Source: Hydrolagus affinis (taxonomy: Eukaryota). Taken from it: a stretch of DNA of 64,000 bases. The position numbers and the translations under genes were made by a program. This document shows positions 12,833 to 34,140 of this stretch, piece by piece; the first letter of the stretch is position 1; each line of letters begins with the position of its first letter. The stretch lies in contig JAAILG010000396.1 of assembly GCA_012026655.1 (NCBI GenBank), positions 1 through 64,000 on the forward strand. The letters are read 5' to 3'. Under the pieces are notes generated by a model. That model saw only the letters and a list, made by a program, of their open reading frames with translations. It was not told the origin of the DNA and did not search any database.

Positions 12833-13038
12833 CAGTAAAAGCCCATTTATCCGGCACCCGATCAACCGCAACTTCCGTATAACCGGCATCGCAAAAAAAA
12901 ATCTGCATTCGATTAACCGGAATTTATCCTGAAAAATGCATTGGAATTTTTTTTTCGCATTTTCGGCTGAATATCCGGCACGTGCTTTAACCGGCATTGC
13001 CTAGGTCCCATGGGTGCCGGATAAACGGGCTTTTACTG
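12833..13038. mobile_element. 206-bp Tigger/pogo-type (Tc1/mariner superfamily) MITE
   Basis: 27-bp TIR CAGTAAAAGCCC(A/G)TTTATCCGGCACCC with one mismatch, TA duplication on both sides, subterminal AACCGGCA repeats. Confidence 0.93.
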
Positions 13039-18934: not shown

Positions 18935-19260
18935 CTTGGGTCATCTGGTTCATTTGGTAGCACTCTCGCTTCTGAGTCCCATTGCTTGAACATTGGTTCA
19001 AGCAATGGGACTTTGAACTCATATGCTGGGATTATGCAGCATTTATGGAGATGCTGTTCTTCGGGTGAGATTTAACTGAAGTCTGCATGTTCAGGTAGAC
19101 GTAAAGTATCCCTTGGCACTAATCGAAAATAAATTGGCATTTCTCCCTGCGTGCTTGCCAACAATCCCCCAAATAAAGTTGATCATTCACTTAATGGCTC
19201 TGTGAAGGACATCTCAAAGGATTTCACTTTATTCACTGTAAAGTCTAGCGATTGTGTAAT
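18935..19260 (+). mobile_element. SacSINE1/DeuSINE-like SINE, degraded
   Basis: tggttcatttggtagcactctcgcttctgagtc..ggttcaag..caggtagacgtaaagtatcccttggcacta. Confidence 0.7.
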
Positions 19261-20340
19261 TTTGTTGAAGGCCAGAACCTACATTGACTTATTCTGAACA
19301 CCTCCAATCTGTCTGGAACAGAATACATTGTATGTGGAAGTGCTCTGAGACACCGTCCGGCGTGGAGGGCGCTATATAAATCAAAGTTCTTGTTGCTGTT
19401 GGAAGTGTGGTTGGATCAGATAATACAATCACCTTAGACTATATCAGTTAAATTCTTTCATTGCTGTTTTGTTCTGGGCTATCTAATTCTCTATTAAAGG
19501 ACTGGACCATTTTTTTCTTATTTCTGTTCTGTATTATTAATTTAGAATCATTTTGCCATTCTGCTGATTTGGGGTGGTGGATTACTTTGTGAATTGCTGT
19601 TTCTGTGAGTCAATGCATGATAAACAGGCAGGGTACAATGGACTCACTCACTACCAGATTAAGGTACTTGAACCAGAATCAATTTCATTTGAGAGGGAAA
19701 GATAAATAAATGATCAAATGAATGAACAATCTTCCGAGACTCCAAAAAATCTTCAATGTTAGGTTTGTTTTTATAGCATTTGTAAAATTTAGACTTGGCT
19801 GGATTTCAGAATGGATAATTACAGAGCGTCATTTTTTTGGTATCTCACACACTCTTTCCAATTTAAAGCTCTACCTCTATCTTCAGGGACTGGACAGTTC
19901 AAGAATTGGATACAATAGAGATTAACCCACAAGTCCTCATTCTCCCACCTCCCGAAGATAGGAAGCAAGCTGCCTGCAGTTTTCTCTCTCACTCTCTCTC
20001 CCCCACTCAGATGATCCAATAACACTGACAGGGTTAGCCTGTGTGCAAATGTCAATGGAAACCTCAAATCAGGCTCAGGCTTCCAGGGTGACAATCTTGA
20101 TGTACCAGTGTTGTAACCAGAGGGCTGGCAGTGCTTGGCCTCTCAAACTACGCCAATGTTTCTTTACCCCCGGTCAAAAATGTCATAATTTCTTTTTAAA
20201 AAAAATTGTATTTGTCATTCCACGGTTATTTGGGGGGGCGGAAATCATTCATCGTTACCAATTATCCGTTGCACTTTGATTTACACTTCTGAATTACACA
20301 GATTCATTAGATTCACACAAACATATATAGATATTATATA

Positions 20341-21077
20341 CAGTAGAAGCCCGTTTATCCGTGACTTGATGAACCGGCACTTTCGTAAAACCGGCACACC
20401 CCAAAAAATATATCCCCATTCGATAAACCGGAACTTATCGGGAACAATAGCAGTGGAGGAATTGTAAATGCATAAATAATAGCAGATAATAACAGAATAT
20501 TGTATTGGTACTTATTGTTAAAACTACTCTCTTGCGCTTCTCACCTTTACTGGTAGATGCTGCGCTTGAAGCCATGATGCTGTGGTTGAGGTTTATAGTC
20601 CAGCGATTCTTTTTAAAATGGAGCACGCCAAGCGGGTGAAAAAAAAACGGAGCGCGACTTTAAAGCCTTTCTAGCGGCAAGCTGATAACGCAAGCCAATA
20701 ATCCACATTGTCGCGCAGGTGCAGTATTTTGGTTTGCCGCTAGTAGAGTCTAGGGTTATCGGCTTGCCGCTCATAAAGCTTTAAAGTCTCGCTGCCATTT
20801 TTGTCACCCGCTTGGTGTCCTCCATTTTACAAAGAATCGCCGGACAATAAACCCCAACTAGAAAAGGTGAGAATGGCAAGAGAGTAGTTAACAATAAGTA
20901 CCAATACAATATTCTTTTATTATCTATTATTATTTAGTCTGGTGTGTATGGTGTGTGTTAAAATAACTTTAATTTCTTTGTGGTGAGTTTTCAGCCGCGG
21001 GCCACCCGAATATGCGACAGGCGCATTAACCGGCATTGGCCAGGTCCCGCAGGTGCCGCATAAACGGGCTTTTACTT
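20341..21077. mobile_element. ~740-bp non-autonomous Tigger/pogo element, copy 1 (unedited), with internal ~200-bp inverted repeat
   Basis: TIR CAGTAGAAGCCCGTTTATCC, TA flanks; arms ~20473-20689 and ~20755-20935 are reverse complements; minus strand encodes MASSAASTSKGEKRKRVVLTIS, like a Tigger/CENP-B-family transposase N-terminus. Confidence 0.92.
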
Positions 21078-21664
21078 TATATAGAATATGTATATTTGCT
21101 CAGATTGGAGTGTAACAGAGTCACATTTATCCTCTGGCGTTCAGCAATTGCCAAGACATACAGGCCCTTTATATGAACTTGCCAGTAGGGCAATAGAGGG
21201 CTTCCCTCAAGGTCCAGTGCTTAACACATGAGCATAATTCAGTTCACTGGGTTTAAATGAACTTTTATTCACCCTGTGTTTCTAAAAATGTGAATTCATT
21301 AAGGTTGAAGATTTAAAAAAAAGTGATTTTCTCTGTCCACTTGCCCAACTTTTAATAAACAGATATAAATTGTGAAGTCTAAATGGAATGGATGGATGGG
21401 GAGTTGGTAACAACAATAGGCAAGGGGCCACTTTTTGTATGGGGCGAATTGGTCTTGTGGAAAATATTCTCATTGTCCTGATGGTTTGCACCCACAAGTC
21501 AAAATGAGAGTGAAAAGGACACGAGTAGTCAATTGTGTGTCACATGTTTGCACATATTCAAAGGGAAATGGTATATATCACAGCTTGTGCCACAAGTGTA
21601 AAGATCGATGGTCTCAGTGCCTTGGCTTGTTTTTCAAACTACCCCTAAAATCAACTGAAGGACC

Positions 21665-21830
21665 AGCATAGGACAGAGGTTCAGATGAAAGAAAGGTCCA
21701 TTTTACCTCATCCTTCCAGCATACCAATCCTAGTCTCTTCCAATTACAGTATCAAATGGATACTTTAATAAGCCATTGTCTCAATTTTAGCCACATTTCT
21801 TGGTAACCGGTTCCAGTTAAGTGACATTGA
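21665..21830 (-). mobile_element. Old CR1 3' fragment
   Basis: cataggacagagg..aaggtccattttacctcatcc...ggtaaccggttccagtt, similar to 58720-58900. Confidence 0.5.
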
Positions 21831-21872
21831 CAATGTGTGCTATCCCAGCTCGGGTCTGAAACAATGACTGCC

Positions 21873-21938
21873 CAGCGCCTTGGGACGTCCCTCTGTCGTG
21901 AAAGGCGCCGTACAAGTGTAATTTTGTTGTTGTTGTTG
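21873..21938 (+). mobile_element. Minimal L2 3' end
   Basis: cagcgccttgggacgtccctctgtcgtgaaaggcgccgtacaagtgtaattttgttgttgttg. Confidence 0.8.
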
Positions 21939-23019
21939 GTCAGCGTTTAAAACTATCTGAACTGCAGCCGCACATTTTACACTACGAGTGCCTGTTAGAG
22001 TTACTGAATGTTTCCCTGTGTGTGAGTCAGAGAGGGTTGCCACTTTACCCTTCTTCCCTCCACGCGAAGAAGAGTCTGACCTCCACTCGATGTTAGTGAA
22101 GTGGCTGAGCTCAGCAGCTCGACAGTCTGTGTGAGAGAGTACAGGCACCGACTGGCCCACAGCCAAGCATTCCAGCAGCACTACCTTCTGCAGCCCCACT
22201 AAGTGCTGGCACTTCAAAGAAAATGACCGGATAAAATGCCCACACAAGCTTCAGAACAACAGCAGCTTACATACAACATCAGCGGGAAAATCAGGCTTGC
22301 AAACAACTTGGTTAGAACTCAATGGTGTGGATGCGCTGGTTATTATCAGAATTGACAGGTGATCAAAGCACCAAAATTTAAAAAACATTCTTTCCTACAG
22401 AAAAACTCAATGGTGTATAAATTCAGAACTGAAAAAAGGTCATTTTGCCTATTCAACCTGTCCAACTTAACAACAGCAACGCACTACGCTGGTATAGTGC
22501 CCTTCACATTGGAAAGACCTAAGAGATCAAGCTGAAAGAAAGTCACTGATAGGAGTTCGTTATTATAGGAAATAACAACCCTCTCCATTGGTGATAAGAC
22601 TCCTCCTGCCCATAGTAGACCAAAGGGCCAGCAGTTCAGAAACAGCCTGCAGAAATACATTTTCCTTTTTTACCCAATGCCAAAATTTTATTAATTGGGC
22701 AAACATAACTGGCAATTCAGTTTCATTGCAATGTATTGAAGAAGCCTTGTGTGGATCTTGTGTTCGAGTCACATTGCATTCAATCATTTCTTATTTTTTT
22801 TAAAACACGCAAGAATATATTTCAAAATGAACAATGAAATGTATCTGAGCCACGGGATGAGGCCCCCCCAACCACCACAAGGCCCCTGTAGCTTGACAGT
22901 CCTCTAGTACTGAAGGCAACAATGAAAGGTATATAGATAAACCAAAAATGACACAGTACCCTAAGGTTCCCACAGTATTAAGAGCTGGAACTGTGACAGG
23001 TTCTGCACAGGGCAAGCTG

Positions 23020-23403
23020 ATTGTCAGATCAGTTCAACTGGCTCCTCAACATGTCCCTATCATCAGAACAGTCTTTTTCTTACCAGTGTGTCCCTTTTAT
23101 CAGGTCAGACTGTTTGCTGCTCAGTGTGTCCCTGTTATTGATCCGTCCATCTCCTACTAAATGTGTCCCTATTTTGAGACCATTCTTCAATATGTCCCCA
23201 TTATCAGACAATGTAATTCCTACTATCAGATCATTCTGCAGCTTTGCAGGCATATACCTATTATCAGGCAATTCTTTCTGCATGCTCAGTGTCTCCTCGC
23301 TGTCGGCTCAATACAATCCTTCAAGGGCGTTCCCATTATCAGATCAGTCTGCATTTCATTCAAGGCGTCCCTATTATCAGGTCAATCTGTTGTTGCTCAG
23401 CGT
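23020..23403. repeat. Degenerate minisatellite, ~35-38-bp unit, about 10-11 copies
   Basis: Recurring tgtccctattatcagatcagtctg...gctcagtg. Confidence 0.8.
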
Positions 23404-23754
23404 AAATGGGAGAGTGCTTTAAGGGTTGGCGAAGTAAATCTAAACAAGATGGCCAGTGATTGAAAATGAATTTTCTCTGCAAATCCTTCTCCTCTCTGTA
23501 CTGTTTGGTATTTAACTGGATGTCAATCACATTTAACATATTCTTTCGCAAATCATTCCCAGACACATATCTAACAGTATTTTTCTTTGAGCAGGTTGAG
23601 TCCCCACATACCCCAGAAGCAATATGAACAAAATTGCTAAGAGCAACAGAAAAGTGTCTCTTTCTTTCAAAGATCTGTGCCACTTTCGGATGCTGCTGTG
23701 ACCCTTGGTATCTTTTTCAAAAAAAGTATCTTATATAGCTATTTATACACAGTA

Positions 23755-23850
23755 TAGATAGATTAGATAAGATAGATAAGATAGATTAGATAGATTAGAT
23801 TAATAGATTAATAGATTGATAGATTGATAGATTGATAGATTGATAGATAG
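23755..23850. repeat. Compound GATA/TAGAT/TAGATTGA microsatellite
   Basis: Seen directly. Confidence 0.9.
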
Positions 23851-25480
23851 GACAAACCCAATACAGATGAAGAGAGAAAACCTGTAAATGTTGCCTGGCT
23901 CTGCTGAATGCCTGAAAGTCCGACGTCAGGTTTGGATCAATACTTATCCTTATCAGAGGCCCCGGCTTAATCTTTACAAAATGTATGAAAGTGAAATTGA
24001 TTTTTTTCCTCTCTTTTATAAGATTTGAAGAGTTTTTTTGGGGAAAAAATATACATCCAAAATAAACCACAGAATCTAAACAAGAACTATGCCTTGTTAT
24101 TAGCACCAGCCATCAGACAGTAAACACATCACTGCTTACAAAGGAGGGATTATGCAGTTCTGAAGTATCATAGTCTATTGATTAATGCAATTACTGCACA
24201 ATAATCCTTTCCTTCTGCCAATTGTGAATTTTGCAACTCGTTCACAGGTCGACCACTCAGGTAACAATCGCAATGATTTGGGGGTCTCATTTTCAAAAGG
24301 CACAAAGGTACTTGCAAACAGTGAATCCCGTACGTCACCAGAGGCACTGAAGTAGAGTCAGCCACAACTCTATGCAGGATAGAAGCCAATTTCCTGCCGG
24401 AGCTAGGAGCCTTCTTTGGCCACTATCTGGGTTTCTGAAAGTCGGGATGGGAAATTGGCATGTGAACAGAGCTCCAGAGGATGGATCCTGACACAGTGAG
24501 AACTTTGCAGGATTCACCATTTACAAATCCTGTTTGCAAACCTCACAAATTCGCTGCCAGCGACTCGACAGTGATGCTGGCAACACTTGTTGAGATGGTC
24601 GAGGAGTAATGAGGTTGTGTAATATTCCTAATGCACAAACCATTTGTTTGTTGCGTAACATGCTCAAAGGATACACATTAATGAAACTTTGAATCTGTCA
24701 CAAATAAAATAATAGGGTTAGAGAGGTTGGAGGGTTGACCATACAGTTTAAACCATTTTAAACCCTGCGCTGGTTGTTCAAACATTTAATCACATTCCGA
24801 TTGTTTCTGGTTCTGATGAAAAGAAGATGTAAAACCACTGATAGCATTGCAATATGTGAGCCCCGTGTTCTTTCTCAATAACAATATTTATACTGAAATG
24901 TTTCCAGAAGTTAAAACAGCACAATGCTTTGTAAATGAGATCATACTCTGCCAGTTACATGACTGAACACAGACCAAGTTCAACAGGGGTGGGGGCGGAG
25001 AAGAGAGAGATTCTCCAAGTACAGAAAAACCTATGCTAACTCTACCGCAAGAGATTTGAATTAGAATTTTTTTCTTTGAAGCCATGAACCAAAAGAAAAT
25101 TTAGCAATAGCATTTCGCTGTCAGTCATTTCGATTCAAACAATATGGATCACATACGGTCATTGTAAATGTTTATCTATATGGCAGCACGGAGCAAGTTA
25201 CTGTAGGATATGACGAAATTGTTTGCCAAGTTTTGTTAGAATACACATAAGGCTGTTTGGCACAGCGCGCATGGGACGAGATGCCATGACTGCAACTCTT
25301 CACATGATGTAGTGCAGGTACCAGCCAGACAGTGGCACCAAGAAGCTTGGTCATAGTGGGCTAAGGTGGTTGTTGGGTGGGCAGGGGGAAGAGTTAGAAA
25401 GGCGGCAAGTCAGAGCAACTAACAACCGAATGAAATATGCACAGATGGAGGGCACAAAACAGCTTTACCTGCCTCCTTTA

Positions 25481-25771
25481 TAATAATAGTCATCCTTGGA
25501 TTTGATATAGCGCTTTTCACGTCTTCTAGACATCTCAAAGCGCCTCACAGAATACATTGTAAAGTAAATTGACTGTGCATTTGTGGGCGAAACGTGGCTG
25601 CCAATTGTGCACAGCGGTGTCCCACAAACAGTCGTGGATTGAAATGACCCATTCTTTACTGATTTTTTTTCAAGGGATTATTATTATTAGGCATGTGGGG
25701 TAAGGAAACTTGCCTGGAATTGAACCCAGGTCTCTCACTTGCAAGGCGAGTGCGCCAGCCACTGAGCTACA
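25481..25771 (-). mobile_element. Full-length SINE family A (tRNA-Ala-like head, core, L2-like tail)
   Basis: Minus strand tgtagctcagtgg..ctcgc-ctTGCaa-gtgag..ggttcaattcc (A box, TGC anticodon-like loop, B box); (TTA)n tail. Confidence 0.9.
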
Positions 25772-26421
25772 TATCTCCGCCTGTGTGTCACATAATCGTG
25801 TCTTCCAGGTGATTCAAAGGTAAACTGTTTTCACTCTTCCTTTCACATTTTTCAATTAAGATTTCTTGCATTGTTCTTGTATTTTCCCGGGGTTACAAAG
25901 GAGTATTGTCTTATAGATCAACAAAAAACAAAGATTCCAGTCCATTTTGAACTTGGTAACTACTGATTCCTCTATGACTTAACTGAAACATCTCCTGCCA
26001 GAATTTAAATTAACATATTTTATTACAGACCCGATGGAAACCTTGGGTTCTTACAAAAATAGCTTCACAAGTTCTACTCCACTGAGCAAGGATTAGCCTA
26101 TTTTTGTTATTTTCCACCCCGTGGTATAACACTGGCCCTTGCATAAACAAACTTGTCCGATACATGCAGTCATCATACCGTTTAGTGTACTTTTTTTTGT
26201 TTCTTTTCAATTAACTTTTGATCCTTCCTGTTGGGTCTCCCTGCGCCTGACACTATTCGCCAGCCAAGAGAATGGGCAGGAAATCCCTGTTCCCCGGCCT
26301 TTCACAATTCAGTGTTTGATCTGATCGCTAAATGCAATGCACAAAAGCAGTATGATCTGTCCTCCCTCCAAGGCAGGCCAAGTTCTCAGCATCCACTCAC
26401 CCTGCACCTCCCTTGTGAAGG

Positions 26422-26805
26422 CCTGTAGCTCAGCGGTTCAGAGCACTCGCCTGTCAAGTGGGAGATCTCGGTTCCATTCCCAGCAGGCCAAAATATTGGG
26501 CAAGTTTCCTTGCTCCACACTCCTCCGTTTACCTAGCAGTCAGTAGGAACCTGGTTGTTAGTCGATTGGCAGATTGCTTTTCCGGGGGTAATAATTCCTT
26601 TAAAAAATTATAAGAATAATAAATTGGTCACTTTAATCCATGACTGTCGGTGGGACACTGCTGTGCACAATTGGCAGCTGCGTTTTGCTAACAAAAATAT
26701 ACAGTGAATTCACTTTACAGCATATTTTGTGAAATGCTTTGAGATGTCTCGAGGATGTGATAATGCGCTCAATAAAATGCAAACAATATTATTATTAATA
26801 TTATT
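26422..26805 (+). mobile_element. Full-length SINE family A, long variant
   Basis: cctgtagctcagcgg...ttgggcaagtttccttgctccacac + extra ccgtttacctagcagtcagtaggaacctggttgttagtcga segment + shared tail. Confidence 0.88.
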
Positions 26806-26831
26806 GCTTAGAAGAATAATATTAATAGTAG

Positions 26832-27055
26832 TGCTTTCAGCTAGGCCTCGAAACTCTGGAGCTCTCTCCCTCAACCCTTTCAACTCGCTCCCTCCTTTCG
26901 CATCTTCAGGTCGCGCCTGAAGATCTTTGTCTTTGACCTTGTTTAAAGTCACCTTTTTCCCCTGACCCCATAGCTCGGCCTCAGCCATTGTGAAGCTTCC
27001 TGAGAGCCGCCTGGCGAGGCAAGCGCTATATAAATGCAAGTCGTCGTCGTCGTTG
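26832..27055 (+). mobile_element. L2 3' fragment
   Basis: aactctggagctctctccctc..ttcaggtcgcgcctgaagatctttgtctttgac..gcgctatataaatgcaagtcgtcgtcgtcgttg. Confidence 0.8.
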
Positions 27056-27783
27056 TAGAAGGAACTTCCTAGGTGTGGAACTGCAGGTGGGGACTTGTTG
27101 CCCTACTCCCTGGAGTGGCAAGGCATTATGCCACAATGTAGTTTCACTCATCTTATCTTTCAGTAGATCTTTTACTTGCAATCCACTCGTTATCATATAT
27201 TATATTTATCGGTCCATAAAGGGTCTTGAAATGTTACTACAAGTACTTCCCCTTCCATTTTATGATTTCCCTCTTATATGTTTCAAAGGACTGCGCCCTG
27301 CTGAGTCCAAACCCTGAATTTCTTTGCCATTATCTGTCATTTTCTTTGCTGGGTAAGAATGTCTGTGATCAGACTAAATGACATTAGCTGGGGCTGTTGA
27401 AAAGCCTCTTTATTAACCTGCTGGCCACTTTTTGTACTTCTAATCTTGAAAATGTGGGCACTAAGTATAAAACATTGTTGGATTACCATGCACTGTGTTT
27501 ACAAGTGGCTAAAGTACATATCAAGCTGCAATTTGGAATATCCATTCAATCTGAATTATAGCTTTTCAGTATATTAATACATCGTCTATTGGTGTTAGCA
27601 AGAAATACTGTATGCGTAGATAATTGTTAACACATAGCACAGCAACTTATCAAATAGATCAGAGAGAATGTAATTGCACTGATTTAATGTTCTTATCACT
27701 GTTATTGTGCATGTTGCGGTGTAATGTTTTACACTGAAGGAATTCAATCATTTCATTCCAGCAAAAACTCGCAGCTAAAGGCC

Positions 27784-27832
27784 TGTGTGTGTGTGTGTGT
27801 GTGTGTGCGTGCATGCTTGCGTGCGTGCGTGC
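27784..27832. repeat. (TG)n/(TGCG)n microsatellite
   Basis: Seen directly. Confidence 0.9.
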
Positions 27833-28647
27833 GGAATGGATCCAGATGGGAAAAAACATGTACTTCTTCATGACGGTCTCCTGGAGGACAATCTGTACAC
27901 TGTTTCAGTTGGAAGATGCCCAGAAAGATAATAAGAGTTTGCAAATCTGTGACACAGATCAATAATTTTCTGTAGCTGCTGATCCACTTTATCGATCGCT
28001 ATCTATCTCGGTGTCATGATTAGAAAGTCTGCATACGACCACCACCACCCCTTCCTTCCTCAGATCAATGCCACAGAACAGTCAAAGGGCTCAGGGACCA
28101 TAACTATCCCCATTATCTGGGCAGCTGCTTTCACACTGTCGGCAGGGTGTAAATCATTCGGATCATTTAAAAGAGGCACAGAGAGGAAACAAAAACATAA
28201 ATGGTTACCAGTACAGAAAAATAATAAAGTGATTAAGAAACCACAAATGATTAACGGGAATCCAGGGAGGCCGCAGCTTTGCTTCCTTTGGGAGTTGGTT
28301 CTTCCAATACTTCGCAATGTCTGGGTCAGCAGGTAAATTTCTCTTCTTGTTCCTGAATCAGCTTGCTCATTAAAGACTCTGGGCTGAATGAAGCGGTTGC
28401 TGAAAGGTGTATTGCAAAATTGAAGCAAATACCAGGCTAGCTAGAGATATAGATTCCCCAAAATAGCTCTATCCTTTGAGCGGGCTGAGTAATCACTTTT
28501 ACCGGTACCTCTTATAGTATTTGCCGCATTGGAAGCTGGGGAGCAAGTCATTCTGTAGATGTGCAGGATGATGAGGGTGGGCAGGAGAATGGAGAGACGG
28601 CAAAAGTGACTGAGAGCAAAGGGCATCAGAGTGATCAGAGTGGGTTT

Positions 28648-28717
28648 CAGCGCCTTGGGACGTCCTCCCGACGTGAAAGGCGCTCTATAAATGTAATTTG
28701 TTGTTGTTGTTGTTGTC
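28648..28717 (+). mobile_element. Minimal L2 3' end, near consensus
   Basis: agcgcctt-ggg-acgtc-ctccc-gacgt-ga-aaggcgct stem-loop, then ctataaatgtaatt(tgt)n. Confidence 0.85.
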
Positions 28718-29254
28718 AGTAGGGTGAGGGCAAGAATGACAAGAGGCGTAACAAACATTGTAGGAAAATCGGCCAAAGGGTGAGGGTGCGTTGGGGAGAG
28801 AGCGGTGGGGAGAGAAGAGGGCAGCAATGGCTGCGCCCTCAGCTACTGGCTCTGGCACCACTTACAACATAAATGGGGCCAGAGCCAAAAGGAGAGTTTG
28901 TGAAAATGCCACAAACTCCCAGGAGAGGCATGACTGCTGAACAGTCACTTCCAAGCCAGTGTCGAATGAACATCTAGAACCTGTAAGAGGCTGACATTTT
29001 CATTGAAAAAAATTTATCGTATTAGATGGTGAATTGAACTGGTCACCAGGTTATATGTGCTGCGCTATCGATTGCACTGCTAACAAACTTGGTGCTAGCA
29101 GGACCGTCTATTTAACAGCCCTCTGATAGCCCCAGGGTGTTATTCAACAGAGTTAAAGCAACCTTCCCCTTTCCCTCTCAGAGTCCTAACATATGGTTGC
29201 AGTGTCAGTTTTTTTTTACTGAACGCTGACAAAACTAATCATATCTTGTGAAGT

Positions 29255-29345
29255 GTTCTGGGGAAGGGTCACACCCGAAACACTAGCCTGCCTTTTCGCT
29301 TCCAGCTGCCGAATGACCTATTGCGCATTTTCATCATTTAAGATT
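29255..29345 (+). mobile_element. Penelope-like pseudo-LTR fragment
   Basis: gaagggtcacacccgaaacactagcctgcctttt..gctgccgaatgacc resembles 1131-1205; a more decayed copy lies at ~17250-17335. Confidence 0.5.
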
Positions 29346-29706
29346 TTTTTCGGGGGTGGAATTTAAAAAAAAGTCTGTTATCACTTCCTGTTCCTGGTTA
29401 GCAGGCTCAAATCCCTGGTACCGTTGCAATTCGAACCTTCAAAGCAGCCCGAAGAGACTCGCCCTTTGAACAGAAAGGTTTCTGTCTTTGTACATGTTAC
29501 GTCTAGAGATTGGCAGCGCAGTATTTTGCTAATGAGGTCCGCAATCCAATGCCTTGGTAGCGTCCTTGCATTCACTTCTCATTTTGTCACCCTGCCCTTC
29601 ACTCTCACATTGATTCTCATTAGATTTGCTAGTCTTATGGTTTTTTTTCCTTATTTCTTTCTGAGTGACAGTTATAGCCACTAGGGGAAAAAAAATGTCA
29701 TCTTGT

Positions 29707-29729
29707 TGAGAGAGAGAGAGAGAGAGAGA
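29707..29729. repeat. (GA)n microsatellite
   Basis: Seen directly. Confidence 0.9.
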
Positions 29730-30844
29730 AAATCTTCAATTCAAATCTTGAGATTGATGGAACCACTTTGGAAGATATACGTGTGTCTTGGGCGTCTTGA
29801 AGAATTACACTGTTGCACCTGAAGCCAGGCAATGTACAGCCAGCAATACAGAGGCCAAATCCACTAGCAGGATAGATGAAGTACCTCAGGTGACAGCAGA
29901 TACTCTTTATTGAATTCTCGGCGACTGTACTGGAAATCATGGTTCAAAGAGGCACATTCAGCTGAAACGGTGAAGGCATTAGGAGTTATGATGCCAGTGT
30001 TGAATGGCCTGAACTCTCGTCAATTAGCAATACTGTATTAATAAGGGTTGGAAAACGCAGCGGTTTCTAATAGGATTCTTTTATAAGGATTAACCGTATT
30101 TCAGAACAAGGCTAGTATGATTTTTAAAAATGGTGATTCTCCCAGCCAAACCACTCTTTATATAAAAATTGCAATAGCTAACTTTGCTACGAGGTACTGT
30201 ACATCGCAGAATTGGAGATGAAAGCTTTTTGCGCTGCTATTAATAGTGCAATATTTTTAAGTAGGCTGTAAAAGTCCAAGGAAAACCAAAGTGGTTTTAC
30301 CCTAAAAATGGGATAGTACAATCCCATGTACTAAAAGAGCCTCTATGTTTTCAACATTGAATGGACCTACAGATGCACATTTAAATTAAGACTTTAGTTA
30401 AAATAAAATCCAAATAAGGCAAAGAACAGATGCAAAACACTGTATTTTCATTCCAACAGTCAGGCCCCATCTATTAGGCACATTGTGCTTTTTTTTCCTG
30501 CCCTTAGGATAAAACGTTAAACTGAGCTTCTGTTTTGCTGAAATGATAAGGCACTATATCAAATTCAATGTTTTTTAACAAATGTTTGCTTATGTATTTG
30601 ACAATTAATAGTAACTAGCCTAAATTTAAGTACTGTACTATGTAAATCACTCTATCCTAGTTGTATATGAAAGTTTCTGAGTTTATGGCGATGTCATTGG
30701 CTACAAGGATCAAACACCCTCGTCTGCCGATGATCTCTCTTAGCAAGTAGTGAACGTTGGTTTATGAAATATTGATCGTGGTAGTTTTAGAATTATGCTG
30801 ACATTCATTTTGCTGATCTAAGTTTTCTTCCAACTTGAATACCT

Positions 30845-31160
30845 GTCTCAGTTATTAACACTAACACCTCTTGGCCAGAGGACTGTGGGTTCAAGTCTCT
30901 CGTTGGGACATGAGCTATTATGTTGGCTGATATTGGAGAATAGCACTGTGGGAGGGCAGCATTGACGGGGGTGCAATCCCTCAGATGAAACATTAAAACA
31001 CTATTCTGAAAGAGAAGGTTGTTTCCACTAATCTGGCCAACAATCTTCTTGATTAATAGGATATTTGCCTGTTGGCTGCTAAGGTAAATAGCTCCTTTGT
31101 TTCCCTAAAATAAAAGCCACACCAGTTGACAGCAATTACCCCTGAAGCATTTTGGAGACG
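30845..31160 (+). mobile_element. SacSINE1-like SINE, degraded
   Basis: tctcagtt..cacctctt..tgtgggttcaagtc..cagatgaaacattaaa. Confidence 0.6.
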
Positions 31161-31299
31161 TCGCAAACAGCTTCAGAAAATGAGTCATCTGAAGGTGCCG
31201 TAATTCTTGTACCGTGGACAAACCTGTAGCCAATCAGCAGCAGGAACATCTCACAAACAATAGTGAAATGGATGGCCAATTAGAATAGAAAAAATAGTT

Positions 31300-32038
31300 C
31301 AGTAGAAGCCCGTTTATCCATCACCCGCGGGACCTGGCCAATGCCAGTTAAAGCACCTGCCGGATACTCGGACGGCCCGCGGCCGAAAACACACTACAAA
31401 AAAATCAAAGTTCTTTTAACACACATCATATACACCAGACTAAGAAATGGCAGATAGTGACAGAATGTTGTGTTGGTGCTTGTTGTTGGGGCTGCTCTCT
31501 TGCGCTTCTCACCTTTGCTGGTTGGGGTTTGCAATCCAGTGATTCTTTTTTGAATGGAGGGCGCCAGGCGGGTGGAAAAGGCGGCAGCACGATTTTAAAG
31601 TAGAACAACTTTACTAGCTGCAAGCCGAAGCCCCTAGACTCTACTAGTGGCAAACCGAAATACTGCACCTGTGCAACAATGTACGTTATCGGCTAGCGTT
31701 ATCGGCTTGCCGCTAGTATGACTTTAAAGTCGCGCTCCGTTTTTTTCGCCCGCTTGGCATGCTCCATTTTGGGGGAGTCGCTGGACTGTAAACCTCAACC
31801 GCAGCATCATGGCTTCAAGCGCAGCATCTACTAGCGGGGGTAGGGGGCGTGGGAGAGTGGTTTTGATGGTGAGTGACAATGCAGTATTCTGTTATTATGT
31901 TATTATTTATACATTTACAAATCCTCCACTGCTATTGTTCTGGATAAGTCCCGGTTTATTGAATAGGACTTTTTTTTTGGAGTGCCGGTTATATGGAAGT
32001 GCCGGTGCATCGAGTCATGGATAAACGGGCTTCTACTG
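31300..32038. mobile_element. ~740-bp Tigger/pogo element, copy 2 (opposite orientation to copy 1; A-to-G hypermutated arms)
   Basis: TIR CAGTAGAAGCCCGTTTATCCAT at both ends, TA on right flank; colinear with the reverse complement of 20341-21077. Confidence 0.93.
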
Positions 32039-33545
32039 TACAGTGTTTACATCACACATCATGAAAATGAGTTGCTATGAATAATAGCTGCGACCCCAAA
32101 CTAAACACTGGAACAATTACATTACCATTCTGACAATGTTAACTGTCTGCACCCAACTAGATTTTTCTAGTGGTAAATATTAGTTAAGAATTCCTCCCCG
32201 ATCATTGTCCAATAATTTACACTAATTTTCTTTGTAGAATAATTGGTCTATGAACTCTCACAAGCACAGCAGGGATCTACTTAATTATTAAAGCACAGAC
32301 TTCTGGAAGAGATACACAATAGTTATTGAATAACGATTCATATTTAATTTTCTATTTTAATTAGGTTTACATTGCAATCATTTCAAGCTGTTAATTTTTT
32401 TTCATTTTGTGCTGGAAATTGGAGAGAACAGGTCATTTCTGCTCCACGTTAGGTTATTTTGTTGCAGAATTATGGTTATTTATTTTGTGTTATTCAATTT
32501 GGTCACATTTGTTGAGAGAGGGTGAAATGACCTCAGTTTCATTCTGCAATTCTCTCATCTTCTGAAATGTCAGACTGATGCAGATGTACTTTTCCATAGC
32601 TACCAGGAATCACACCCATATCTCACCCAAACAACCATTGTCAGGGATACTAATAATATTACTGCTAATAATACTAATAATATTATGGCGTATTTTGGCA
32701 AGTGTTTTGATTGTTGGGAATCCCAGTGGGAATTAAAACTGTTCTCATCCTAACTCACACTTGTTAATTGTTCCAGTGGGGGTCACCAATAGTATCCCAA
32801 GATAGGAAGTCTGACCAATTTCCCCCTCACATATACAGTCCTCCCTACAATCAAACACACCAGCCTTCACTGCCCTGAGTGAGTTAAACTAAGCCAGAAG
32901 AAACCCAGGTTCAAGCCTGGGGCTGTCCTAGACATATTGTTCAAACTGTAATATGCATTGTGTGCAAGCACAGAAGCTAAGGAACCCAATCTCGGTGTAT
33001 TTAAACAACACTGCTACTCTTCTCACTTTGGCTCAAAGATGCATATGGAATAGGTGGCAAACAGCTGATTAAGACACAAGAGCATGACTTTACATACAAG
33101 TGATTTTATGAGATTGAAGGCCTCTGGTATAAAATACAATATACAAATTCCAGTGAGATATAGCCAGTAAATAGCTTGGCTTTAGGTCCCTCTGCACACA
33201 CATGGTACCATTTTTGAAATGGAAATTGAATCCTTGGAATGTGTAACTCTAGTGAGAAAAGGCACCTGCTTGCCAAGCTTAAATCAGGCTATTTTAATAA
33301 ACTAACTTGAAACTATTTACCTTTGCAATTGTTCTATATTTTTACAGGCCTTCTGGATGTTCTACTCTGCTATAAAGCACAGAGAACCTGAATTAATGCA
33401 TTGAGAGAGAAATTAGGAAAATTGTAGTTGCAATCCCCATCAATGCAGAATCTATTCGGATATTTAAAATGGAGATGGATATTTAGGGAGCCAGGCTATT
33501 ATAGGATATCAAAAGCCCCAACAAATGAAATTGAAACACCTGACA

Positions 33546-34140
33546 TAACAATAACAACAACTTCTATTTATATAATGTCCTCCATCACAGAATGCTTAAC
33601 GATAGCGGAGCCAGAGGCTGAGCCAGGTGGAGGGGGAAGGTGACCATAGGTGCGGTCGAAAAGGAGGGTCTTCAGGCACGACCTGAAAATAGGGAAGAAG
33701 GGGATGGGGTGAAGTGGACGAGGGAGGGAGCATAGTTGCTGAAAGCACGGACATGGAAGGTGGAGCGGAGGATTCGTGGGACAATAAGGAGACCGGATCC
33801 AGTAGAGCAGAGGTAGTGGGTACTGCTGTGAGGAGAAAGAAAATTACAGAGGTAGGGATGGTGCTGAGGAATGGAGGGATTTAAACTCTAGAGGGAGGAT
33901 CTTAAACTCAATCCACTCTGTAGGTGTTGGACAAGGACTGGGATAATCAGGATACGAAGTTTGATGCGGGTAAGAATACGGGTGACAAAGTTTTGAATGA
34001 GCTGAATCTTGTCAAAGGTGGAGGTGGGGTGACCGTCGAGGAGGAAATTAGAATAGTCTAGCTGAGAGGTGAAAAAGGCATGGACAAGGGTTTCGGCAGC
34101 TTTTTAGGTGAGGTATTGATGGAGATGGGCAATGTGGCAG
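33546..34140 (-). mobile_element. L2 LINE 3' fragment (~600 bp, decayed)
   Basis: (CAA)n tail at ~33546; aaaaggagggtcttcagg, gagggaggatcttaaactcaatcc, gagtttt/gaatgagctgaatc, gaatagtctagctgagaggtgaaaaaggcatggacaagggtttcggc correspond to L2 ORF2 motifs (AETLVHAFFTSQLDYSN). Confidence 0.88.

Follow-up and report, generated by a model that had tools for sequence, protein, structure and literature searches.

The window examined in this study is a stretch of 64,000 nucleotides from Hydrolagus affinis, an organism whose assembled genome spans 1.11 Gb. Three copies of one transposable element family lie within this 64-kb window (copies 1, 2, and 3) and their features are as follows, with the As of each segment of copy 2 counted where they bear on the argument.

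31300..32038, + strand: copy 2, a non-autonomous pogo/Tigger-type element, A>G-edited, with editing pattern alpha
31300..31320, + strand: left terminal inverted repeat of copy 2, unedited
31441..31581, + strand: outer arm 1 of the fold-back, with G at 24 of its 47 As
31582..31765, + strand: loop with the inner arms, G at 1 of 37 As (mean of 0.04 over 115 edited copies)
31766..31794, + strand: arm 2a, 6 of 12 As are G
31795..31832, + strand: bulge lacking a partner in arm 1, none of its 10 As changed, with the start codon of a transposase remnant inside
31833..31894, + strand: arm 2b, 17 of 28 As are G, overlapping the remnant of the transposase N-terminus
32018..32038, + strand: right terminal inverted repeat of copy 2
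20341..21077, - strand: copy 1, an unedited copy of the same family from another sub-lineage (U1)
12833..13038, - strand: copy 3, a 206-bp internal-deletion derivative with both ends present and without the fold-back

Copy 2 is flanked by TA at 32039-32040 and, on the other side, by a decayed TT at 31298-31299. The terminal inverted repeats of the family are 21-23 bp long and the two ends pair in folds and in alignments. The G at 31305, within the left repeat, pre-exists in the unedited parent sub-lineage. Copy 3 (12833-13038) carries an A variant in both terminal repeats. An Rfam scan of 19000-34000 returned two tRNA-like hits only, both outside the element; these hits, at 25705-25776 (-) and 26419-26491 (+), lie in dispersed repeats and are probably the heads of tRNA-derived SINEs.

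The assignment to a pogo-type element in the original prediction is supported by the terminal repeats, the TA target sites and autonomous relatives of the CENP-B type. The target-site TA is present at both ends in 90 of 120 A>G-edited copies, 14 of 22 copies edited on the opposite strand (T>C) and 75 of 100 unedited copies; overall, TA flanks both ends in 179 of 242 copies and neither end in 5 of 242, and the flanks are otherwise unrelated. A guessed sequence pattern for the autonomous element found only four ordinary copies. Autonomous relatives were also sought by a CENP-B_N profile search of the genome, from which 30 of at least 150 matches were retrieved. Two long relatives, L200 and L201, match the family by 92% at one element end and by 78-85% in the arm region; the right end of copy 2 resembles the 5' end of these autonomous relatives with 92% identity over 125 nt. 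Separate pieces of L200 match CENP-B_N, HTH_Tnp_Tc5, and DDE_1 (PF04218, PF03221, PF03184) above the cut-off, and every copy of the autonomous relatives that was seen is decayed. The transposase group to which they belong is presumably Jerky-like. The element is a non-autonomous pogo/Tigger derivative in which the 5' region of the transposase has been duplicated in inverted orientation to form the arms. From this duplication, either strand can form a stem of ~170 pairs. A long stem is predicted for copy 1 with a z-score of -23.8 relative to 20 shuffles, and copy 2 retains the stem by means of G:U pairs (z = -11.8).

The CENP-B_N matches, at least 150 in the genome, include several further decayed pogo/Tigger families (L185-L214), and long open frames are found among them in L203 (598 aa) and L210 (611 aa), which may be domesticated genes. 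Four shorter, single-arm relatives (L079, L104, L131, and L132) have the same ends and no fold-back; two of them, L104 and L131, keep an A at most of the sites that are edited in copy 2.

Compared over the whole element from copy 1 to copy 2, there are 53 A>G, 16 G>A, 15 C>T, and 14 T>C changes, and 48 of the 53 A>G changes fall within 31447-31908. The original prediction of roughly 40 such changes on the + strand in both arms was therefore a slight undercount of a real pattern. Copy 1 had also been taken as ancestral; its A state is ancestral, as discussed below, and it is not the parent, since sub-lineage U1 gave no edited copies. The proper reference for copy 2 is the consensus of 21 unedited copies from the same sub-lineage. 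Relative to this parent consensus, 48 of the 138 As in the fold-back are changed to G while no T>C change is present, in agreement with the expectation of very few, and no A>G change is found outside the fold-back. Because the 21 unedited copies carry a mean of only 2.9 A>G changes over the whole element (and 2.7 T>C), the A>G load of copy 2 is far above chance.

The distribution of the changes along copy 2 also follows the original prediction. The unpaired parts are spared, namely the unique left part (0 of 41 As), the bulge (0 of 10) and the unique right part (0 of 26), and the innermost arms together with the loop are barely changed (1 of 37). Pairing is predicted for the inner arms at 31582-31765, which are nearly unedited in all patterns; competing local hairpins are a possible cause. 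With respect to the 5' neighbor, 18 of 37 As after T are changed, 18 of 45 after A, 7 of 26 after C and 5 of 18 after G. A preference for 5' T or A with avoidance of 5' G had been suggested and the direction is correct; the avoidance of G is moderate, however, and C is avoided equally in copy 2.

Where the decayed autonomous relatives cover the edited sites, an A is present at 19 of 21 sites in L200 and 20 of 21 sites in L201. The arms of unedited copies are Watson-Crick complementary, and the counts of G>A and C>T are equal in edited and unedited copies. From these three comparisons, A is judged to be the ancestral state. A model in which G is ancestral and G>A changes occurred elsewhere is ruled out by the arm complementarity and the outgroups. 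An APOBEC-type origin does not fit either, given that G>A and C>T are not raised in edited copies and that the outgroups carry A. In 86 edited copies, the arm As are G in 44.7%, C in 0.3%, and T in 0.6% of cases, and mutagenesis of the diversity-generating retroelement type, in which A changes to any base, does not fit this disparity between A>C (0.3%) or A>T (0.6%) and A>G.

About half of the arm As are edited in each pattern. With a threshold of at least 15% of 52 copies, the edited sites comprise 55 of 103 paired arm As versus 7 of 107 other As (p = 3e-14), and the seven exceptions are mismatches or small bulges inside the arms. On the plus strand, per-site editing is 0.55 after a 5' T or A versus 0.28 after a 5' C or G (p = 0.003), and the minus-strand family is similar with 26 of 59 versus 2 of 18 (p = 0.012). 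When the plus-strand values are separated by 5' base (A 0.61, T 0.48, G 0.32, C 0.24), T is not above A. An enrichment of 3' G is absent (3' G 0.51, A 0.51, C 0.52, T 0.34). Of three As that lie opposite a C, two are G in 96-99% of copies and the third in only 36%; three of the mismatch Gs coincide with the G of an older lineage and could be inherited rather than edited. Same-strand A>G changes restricted to the fold-back are the ADAR-type signature that had been proposed, and in this class II element the signature is real, recurrent, and heritable. No convincing second edited family was identified when 46 further inverted repeats from 0.82 Mb were compared, the best p value of 0.0015 being inflated by double counting.

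The 30 best matches to copy 1 have 1-10 A>G changes and the 30 best matches to copy 2 have 34-46 at common sites. An 18-mer of the unedited bulge has 1,874 exact hits in the genome, compared with 563 for a 20-mer specific to the edited form. A sample blind to editing was assembled from the first 90 hits of the 18-mer, taken contig by contig and without the two that lie in the window; with seven other or rearranged relatives and one duplicate removed, 82 copies remained. These consist of 59 unedited copies (0-9 A>G), 22 of the A>G type (32-50) and one of the T>C type (L105). Edited copies are about a quarter of the family, and the A>G counts per copy are bimodal (0-9 versus 30-52). A rough calculation that allows for ~5% decay per site, rather than a count, gives ~4,000 copies of which 1,000-1,500 are edited. 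Hits on contigs C55, C773, and C2000 of the assembly (G000) recur with the same spacing or belong to identical copies in one contig, which suggests assembly or segmental duplications.

In a later set, 10 incomplete or poorly aligned loci were dropped before counting, duplicates were collapsed, and the sub-lineage background was assigned by the majority of seven single markers. All 137 edited copies (115 A>G and 22 T>C) are on the background of the unedited sub-lineage U2. Within the editing-blind sample, the edited share is 23 of 44 on the U2 background versus 0 of 38 on the other (U1, p = 2e-8). All groups have diverged 4.1-5.1% from their own consensus, making the edited copies as old as U2. 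CpG sites in this genome decay, with G>A at 15.8% in CpG versus 3.8% outside.

The 115 A>G copies present five patterns plus mosaics. Pattern clustering made use of 86 A>G copies that had not been picked by their likeness to copy 2: alpha has 19 members including copy 2, beta 19, gamma 31, delta 5, and epsilon 2, and the rest are single or mixed. The clustering surpasses all 300 permutations (variance of 0.036 versus a maximum of 0.012). Among the four patterns with at least five copies (alpha, beta, gamma, and delta), none is nested in another: in every pair, each pattern has 3-14 Gs that are absent from the other. Epsilon was too small for this comparison. When fit to the five profiles and the unedited state, 97 of 115 copies follow one pattern and 18 of 115 are mosaic, four of these with unedited tracts. 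A few A>G copies that fit poorly may be further founders. Sharp unedited tracts mark the mosaics L058, L237, L081, and L111; L058 and L237 have a similar unedited tract in arm 2. In L073, a copy of the unedited type, there is instead a short T>C tract of four sites.

A search with the single T>C copy of the blind sample retrieved a subfamily edited in the opposite sense:

L105 (G000:C249), L152-L170, L176, and L178, opposite strand: members of the T>C subfamily, 22 copies

The 22 distinct copies have essentially one pattern, which is equivalent to A>G on the opposite strand; the right part of one member, L165, is unedited. At mirror sites ordered by rising frequency among the plus-strand patterns, this family matches at 0/39, 2/13, 2/8, 5/13, 4/8, and 17/22 sites. 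From this agreement, the core sites shared among patterns are intrinsic hot spots, and thus founders can be independent despite having them in common. Descent from a single founder is ruled out by the non-nested patterns and by the opposite-strand family. A serial model for the plus strand, in which a core founder was re-edited, is less likely: none of the 115 copies has the core alone, and the mirror test already accounts for the core. At the sites assessed outside CpGs and the A/T columns of the arms, the founder consensuses are the same as the parent, with one exception in a five-copy group, and the masters of the edited subfamilies have 32-47 same-strand A>G changes in the stem only.

There were several independent edited founders on both strands, each of which was amplified by transposition. 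The alternatives posed earlier, one edited founder that later transposed or a recurrent process, therefore both apply. An editing event at 31300-32038 itself, as first supposed, does not hold: copy 2 is one transposed daughter of an edited master with pattern alpha and, as a result, the direction of local transcription is irrelevant. While the bulk of the amplification looks like cut-and-paste, an RNA stage seems to lie behind the founding copy of each edited subfamily. No copy among 237 is edited on both strands, which suggests that RNA passages were rare relative to insertions. That a few founders gave rise to half of a sub-lineage suggests that they either arose early or had an advantage.

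Contigs of three DNA runs, from two related organisms and three studies, enter both ends of the element from the flanks; from this, the copy 2 insertion is shared. The flanks in these runs are ~2% different, and the best-matching runs could be related to the source of the assembly. Pieces of the G form are present in all three runs; no piece spans the element. Among the matches listed for the three runs, in which paralogs mix, no reversal at edited sites was seen. In an RNA run of a related organism, paralogs mix as well and editing is inseparable from paralog differences.

Hallmarks of retrocopies (carried flanks, a tail, a variable target duplication or a source locus) were absent among 242 of several thousand copies, a small sample that need not include the founders. 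Flanks shared in register within these 242 copies are abundant repeats that are common to edited and unedited copies in both orientations. LINE-carried retrocopies, sought through such shared flanks, were likewise not found in this sample. Two loci with different edited patterns, L102 and L279, are inserted in opposite orientations at one and the same TA within a young LINE-like repeat (90% over 514 nt); the repeat is one that we take to be CR1-like. A third edited-type locus, L272, has the same LINE-like repeat with the L102/L279 site empty. Gamma copies L090, L100, L255, and L109 share an insertion position, or lie next to it, in a SINE-like repeat that is abundant; this looks like a target hot spot.

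The writing back of edited hairpin RNA, as first suggested, remains the likeliest cause, and from the pattern of changes we infer both the enzyme, ADAR, and a reverse-transcription route. With a probability of about 0.78, fold-back transcripts that ADAR had hyper-edited returned to germline DNA by reverse transcription some six or more times, and transposase then spread the resulting copies. In this sequence of events, read-through transcripts of unedited copies in either direction would fold back and would be hyper-edited by ADAR in the germline or early embryo. A reverse transcriptase, in all likelihood of the LINE type, would copy the inosine-containing RNA and read inosine as G. The resulting cDNA would enter the genome with both transposon ends, with about even chances for a retrocopy and for a copy already present being repaired by homology or converted. 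The edited copy would then serve the transposase as an ordinary donor. The edited masters did multiply into TA sites with their terminal repeats intact, and some recombination followed among their descendants. The mosaics fit template switching or conversion without proving a cDNA template. Several observations sit less well with this reading: the nearly unedited inner arms, the absent 3'-G enrichment, 5' T not exceeding 5' A on the plus strand, the restriction of editing to one sub-lineage, the low value at one A opposite C, the mismatch Gs that could be inherited, and the absence of retrocopy hallmarks and of a second edited family in the samples compared. It is possible, though at well under even odds, that an excision break was repaired from the element's own ADAR-edited transcript, either directly or as cDNA, to yield donors whose weaker DNA hairpins let them out-replicate the unedited form. 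The predicted stability of the DNA hairpin changes from -236 kcal/mol in the parent to about -148 kcal/mol in copy 2, a value that includes later decay; that a weaker DNA hairpin from editing may have helped the masters spread is speculation.

ADAR might instead have edited the DNA itself within RNA:DNA hybrids in which a transcript pairs with the non-template strand via the opposite arm. Such hybrids predict the same strand and the same geography, with both arms edited and the bulge, loop and ends spared; they require no RNA-to-DNA step, and full-length ADAR2 is described in PMC5389660 as editing the DNA strand of long matched hybrids. However, the wild-type deaminase domains are less reactive on hybrids than on RNA and gave no reaction on an all-DNA duplex in the experiments described there, and these reactivities favor an RNA substrate over a hybrid or DNA (PMC5389660). 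Hybrid editing would also require ~45 edits on two hybrids of one molecule, all escaping inosine repair, and would leave many lightly edited copies in all sub-lineages, whereas unedited copies have background levels only and U1 presents 0 of 38. Overall, this explanation is improbable. Slightly less probable again is a DNA-acting adenine deaminase working on single-stranded DNA that folds while the element is replicated or a gap in it is repaired. A strong DNA fold is predicted for the parent (-236 and -239 kcal/mol), single strands are exposed in gap repair, and the mosaics (18 of 115) would fit template switching; yet we know of no DNA-acting adenine deaminase in vertebrates, which counts against this possibility, as does a 5' neighbor bias that is ADAR's own. 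Frequent editing across all sub-lineages would be expected, and for ADAR there is the inactivity of its domains on all-DNA duplexes noted above (PMC5389660).

Point mutation with selection for an RNA stem containing G:U pairs, or for a weaker DNA cruciform, followed by amplification is largely refuted. While A>G changes do preserve the predicted plus-strand RNA fold (-378 to -338 kcal/mol) as DNA pairing is weakened, C>T changes also give G:U pairs and yet are not raised (11.9 versus 12.6 per copy). Moreover, the founder consensuses otherwise equal the parent, the groups are equally old (4.1-5.1%), and the counts are bimodal. Lastly, clustered mismatches can arise from sequencing, as noted in PMC2873906, and an artefact of sequencing or assembly, or the inclusion of RNA reads in the assembly, was considered. 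It is refuted by patterns shared over hundreds of loci that have since decayed independently, at CpGs among other sites, and by the G-form pieces in three DNA runs of three studies; an assembly or hairpin error in particular was rejected on finding the same Gs in hundreds of copies with unrelated flanks.

Like other pogo/Tigger MITE-like elements, the family has short terminal inverted repeats beginning from CAGT, a TA target, and no coding capacity; it is distinct in its long internal fold-back and in having subfamilies defined almost only by same-strand A>G changes. Retroviral A-to-G hypermutation, attributed to Kim et al. in 1996, is reportedly a case in which edited RNA was fixed as DNA via reverse transcription. 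Unlike retroviruses, which must pass through RNA and bring a reverse transcriptase of their own, the element encodes no reverse transcriptase and is moved by a transposase. LINE proteins make retrocopies in trans, and breaks can be repaired from RNA or cDNA. Either process would provide the RNA-to-DNA step, and neither was described as an origin of class II founders in the literature searched.

Hyper-editing is reported to alter up to 50% of As (PMC2075533). As described in PMC4365171 and PMC2873906, ADAR hyper-edited inverted-repeat RNA shares with this family the clustered A>G changes in a long duplex, the change of about half of the As, the depletion of 5' G, and the sparing of unpaired parts. 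In contrast, that editing is known in RNA, whereas the changes here are in inherited DNA and are without the 3'-G enrichment expected from a reported ADAR preference (PMC4365171). APOBEC-edited LTR retrotransposons (Knisbacher and Levanon, PMC4866542) also have clustered, strand-biased, deaminase-type changes in germline copies, with the direction set by a consensus or outgroup. The APOBEC changes are G>A on retroelement cDNA, while those described here are A>G in the fold-back stem of a class II element. In PMC4866542, DNA transposons were taken as a negative control; here, edited copies founded subfamilies. No report of A>G-edited DNA-transposon subfamilies was found in full-text searches of a library with few subscription journals; the supplements of PMC4866542 may list such clusters. 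For every step of the proposed sequence there is a known parallel, but no publication found in these searches combines them.

It has long been asked if the information carried by edited RNA returns to germline DNA outside of retroelements. Class II elements have no RNA stage by definition and have served as a negative control for genomic editing (PMC4866542). With A-to-I marks as a tracer, passages of a class II element from RNA to DNA may be dated and counted, and the family may be viewed as six natural editing read-outs of one substrate. The signature, an excess of G:T over A:C inside a genomic hairpin, can be screened for in any assembly. A subfamily can be founded by a single burst of ~45 changes, which distorts the ages and trees derived from such subfamilies. 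If the repair of excision breaks from edited transcripts is the true explanation, the life cycle of this DNA transposon would have had an RNA arm while it was active, and the family would preserve traces of ancient repair from RNA templates in the germline of a vertebrate, which would be categorically new. RNA editing would then be a heritable and recurrent mutagen behind more than half of a transposon sub-lineage.
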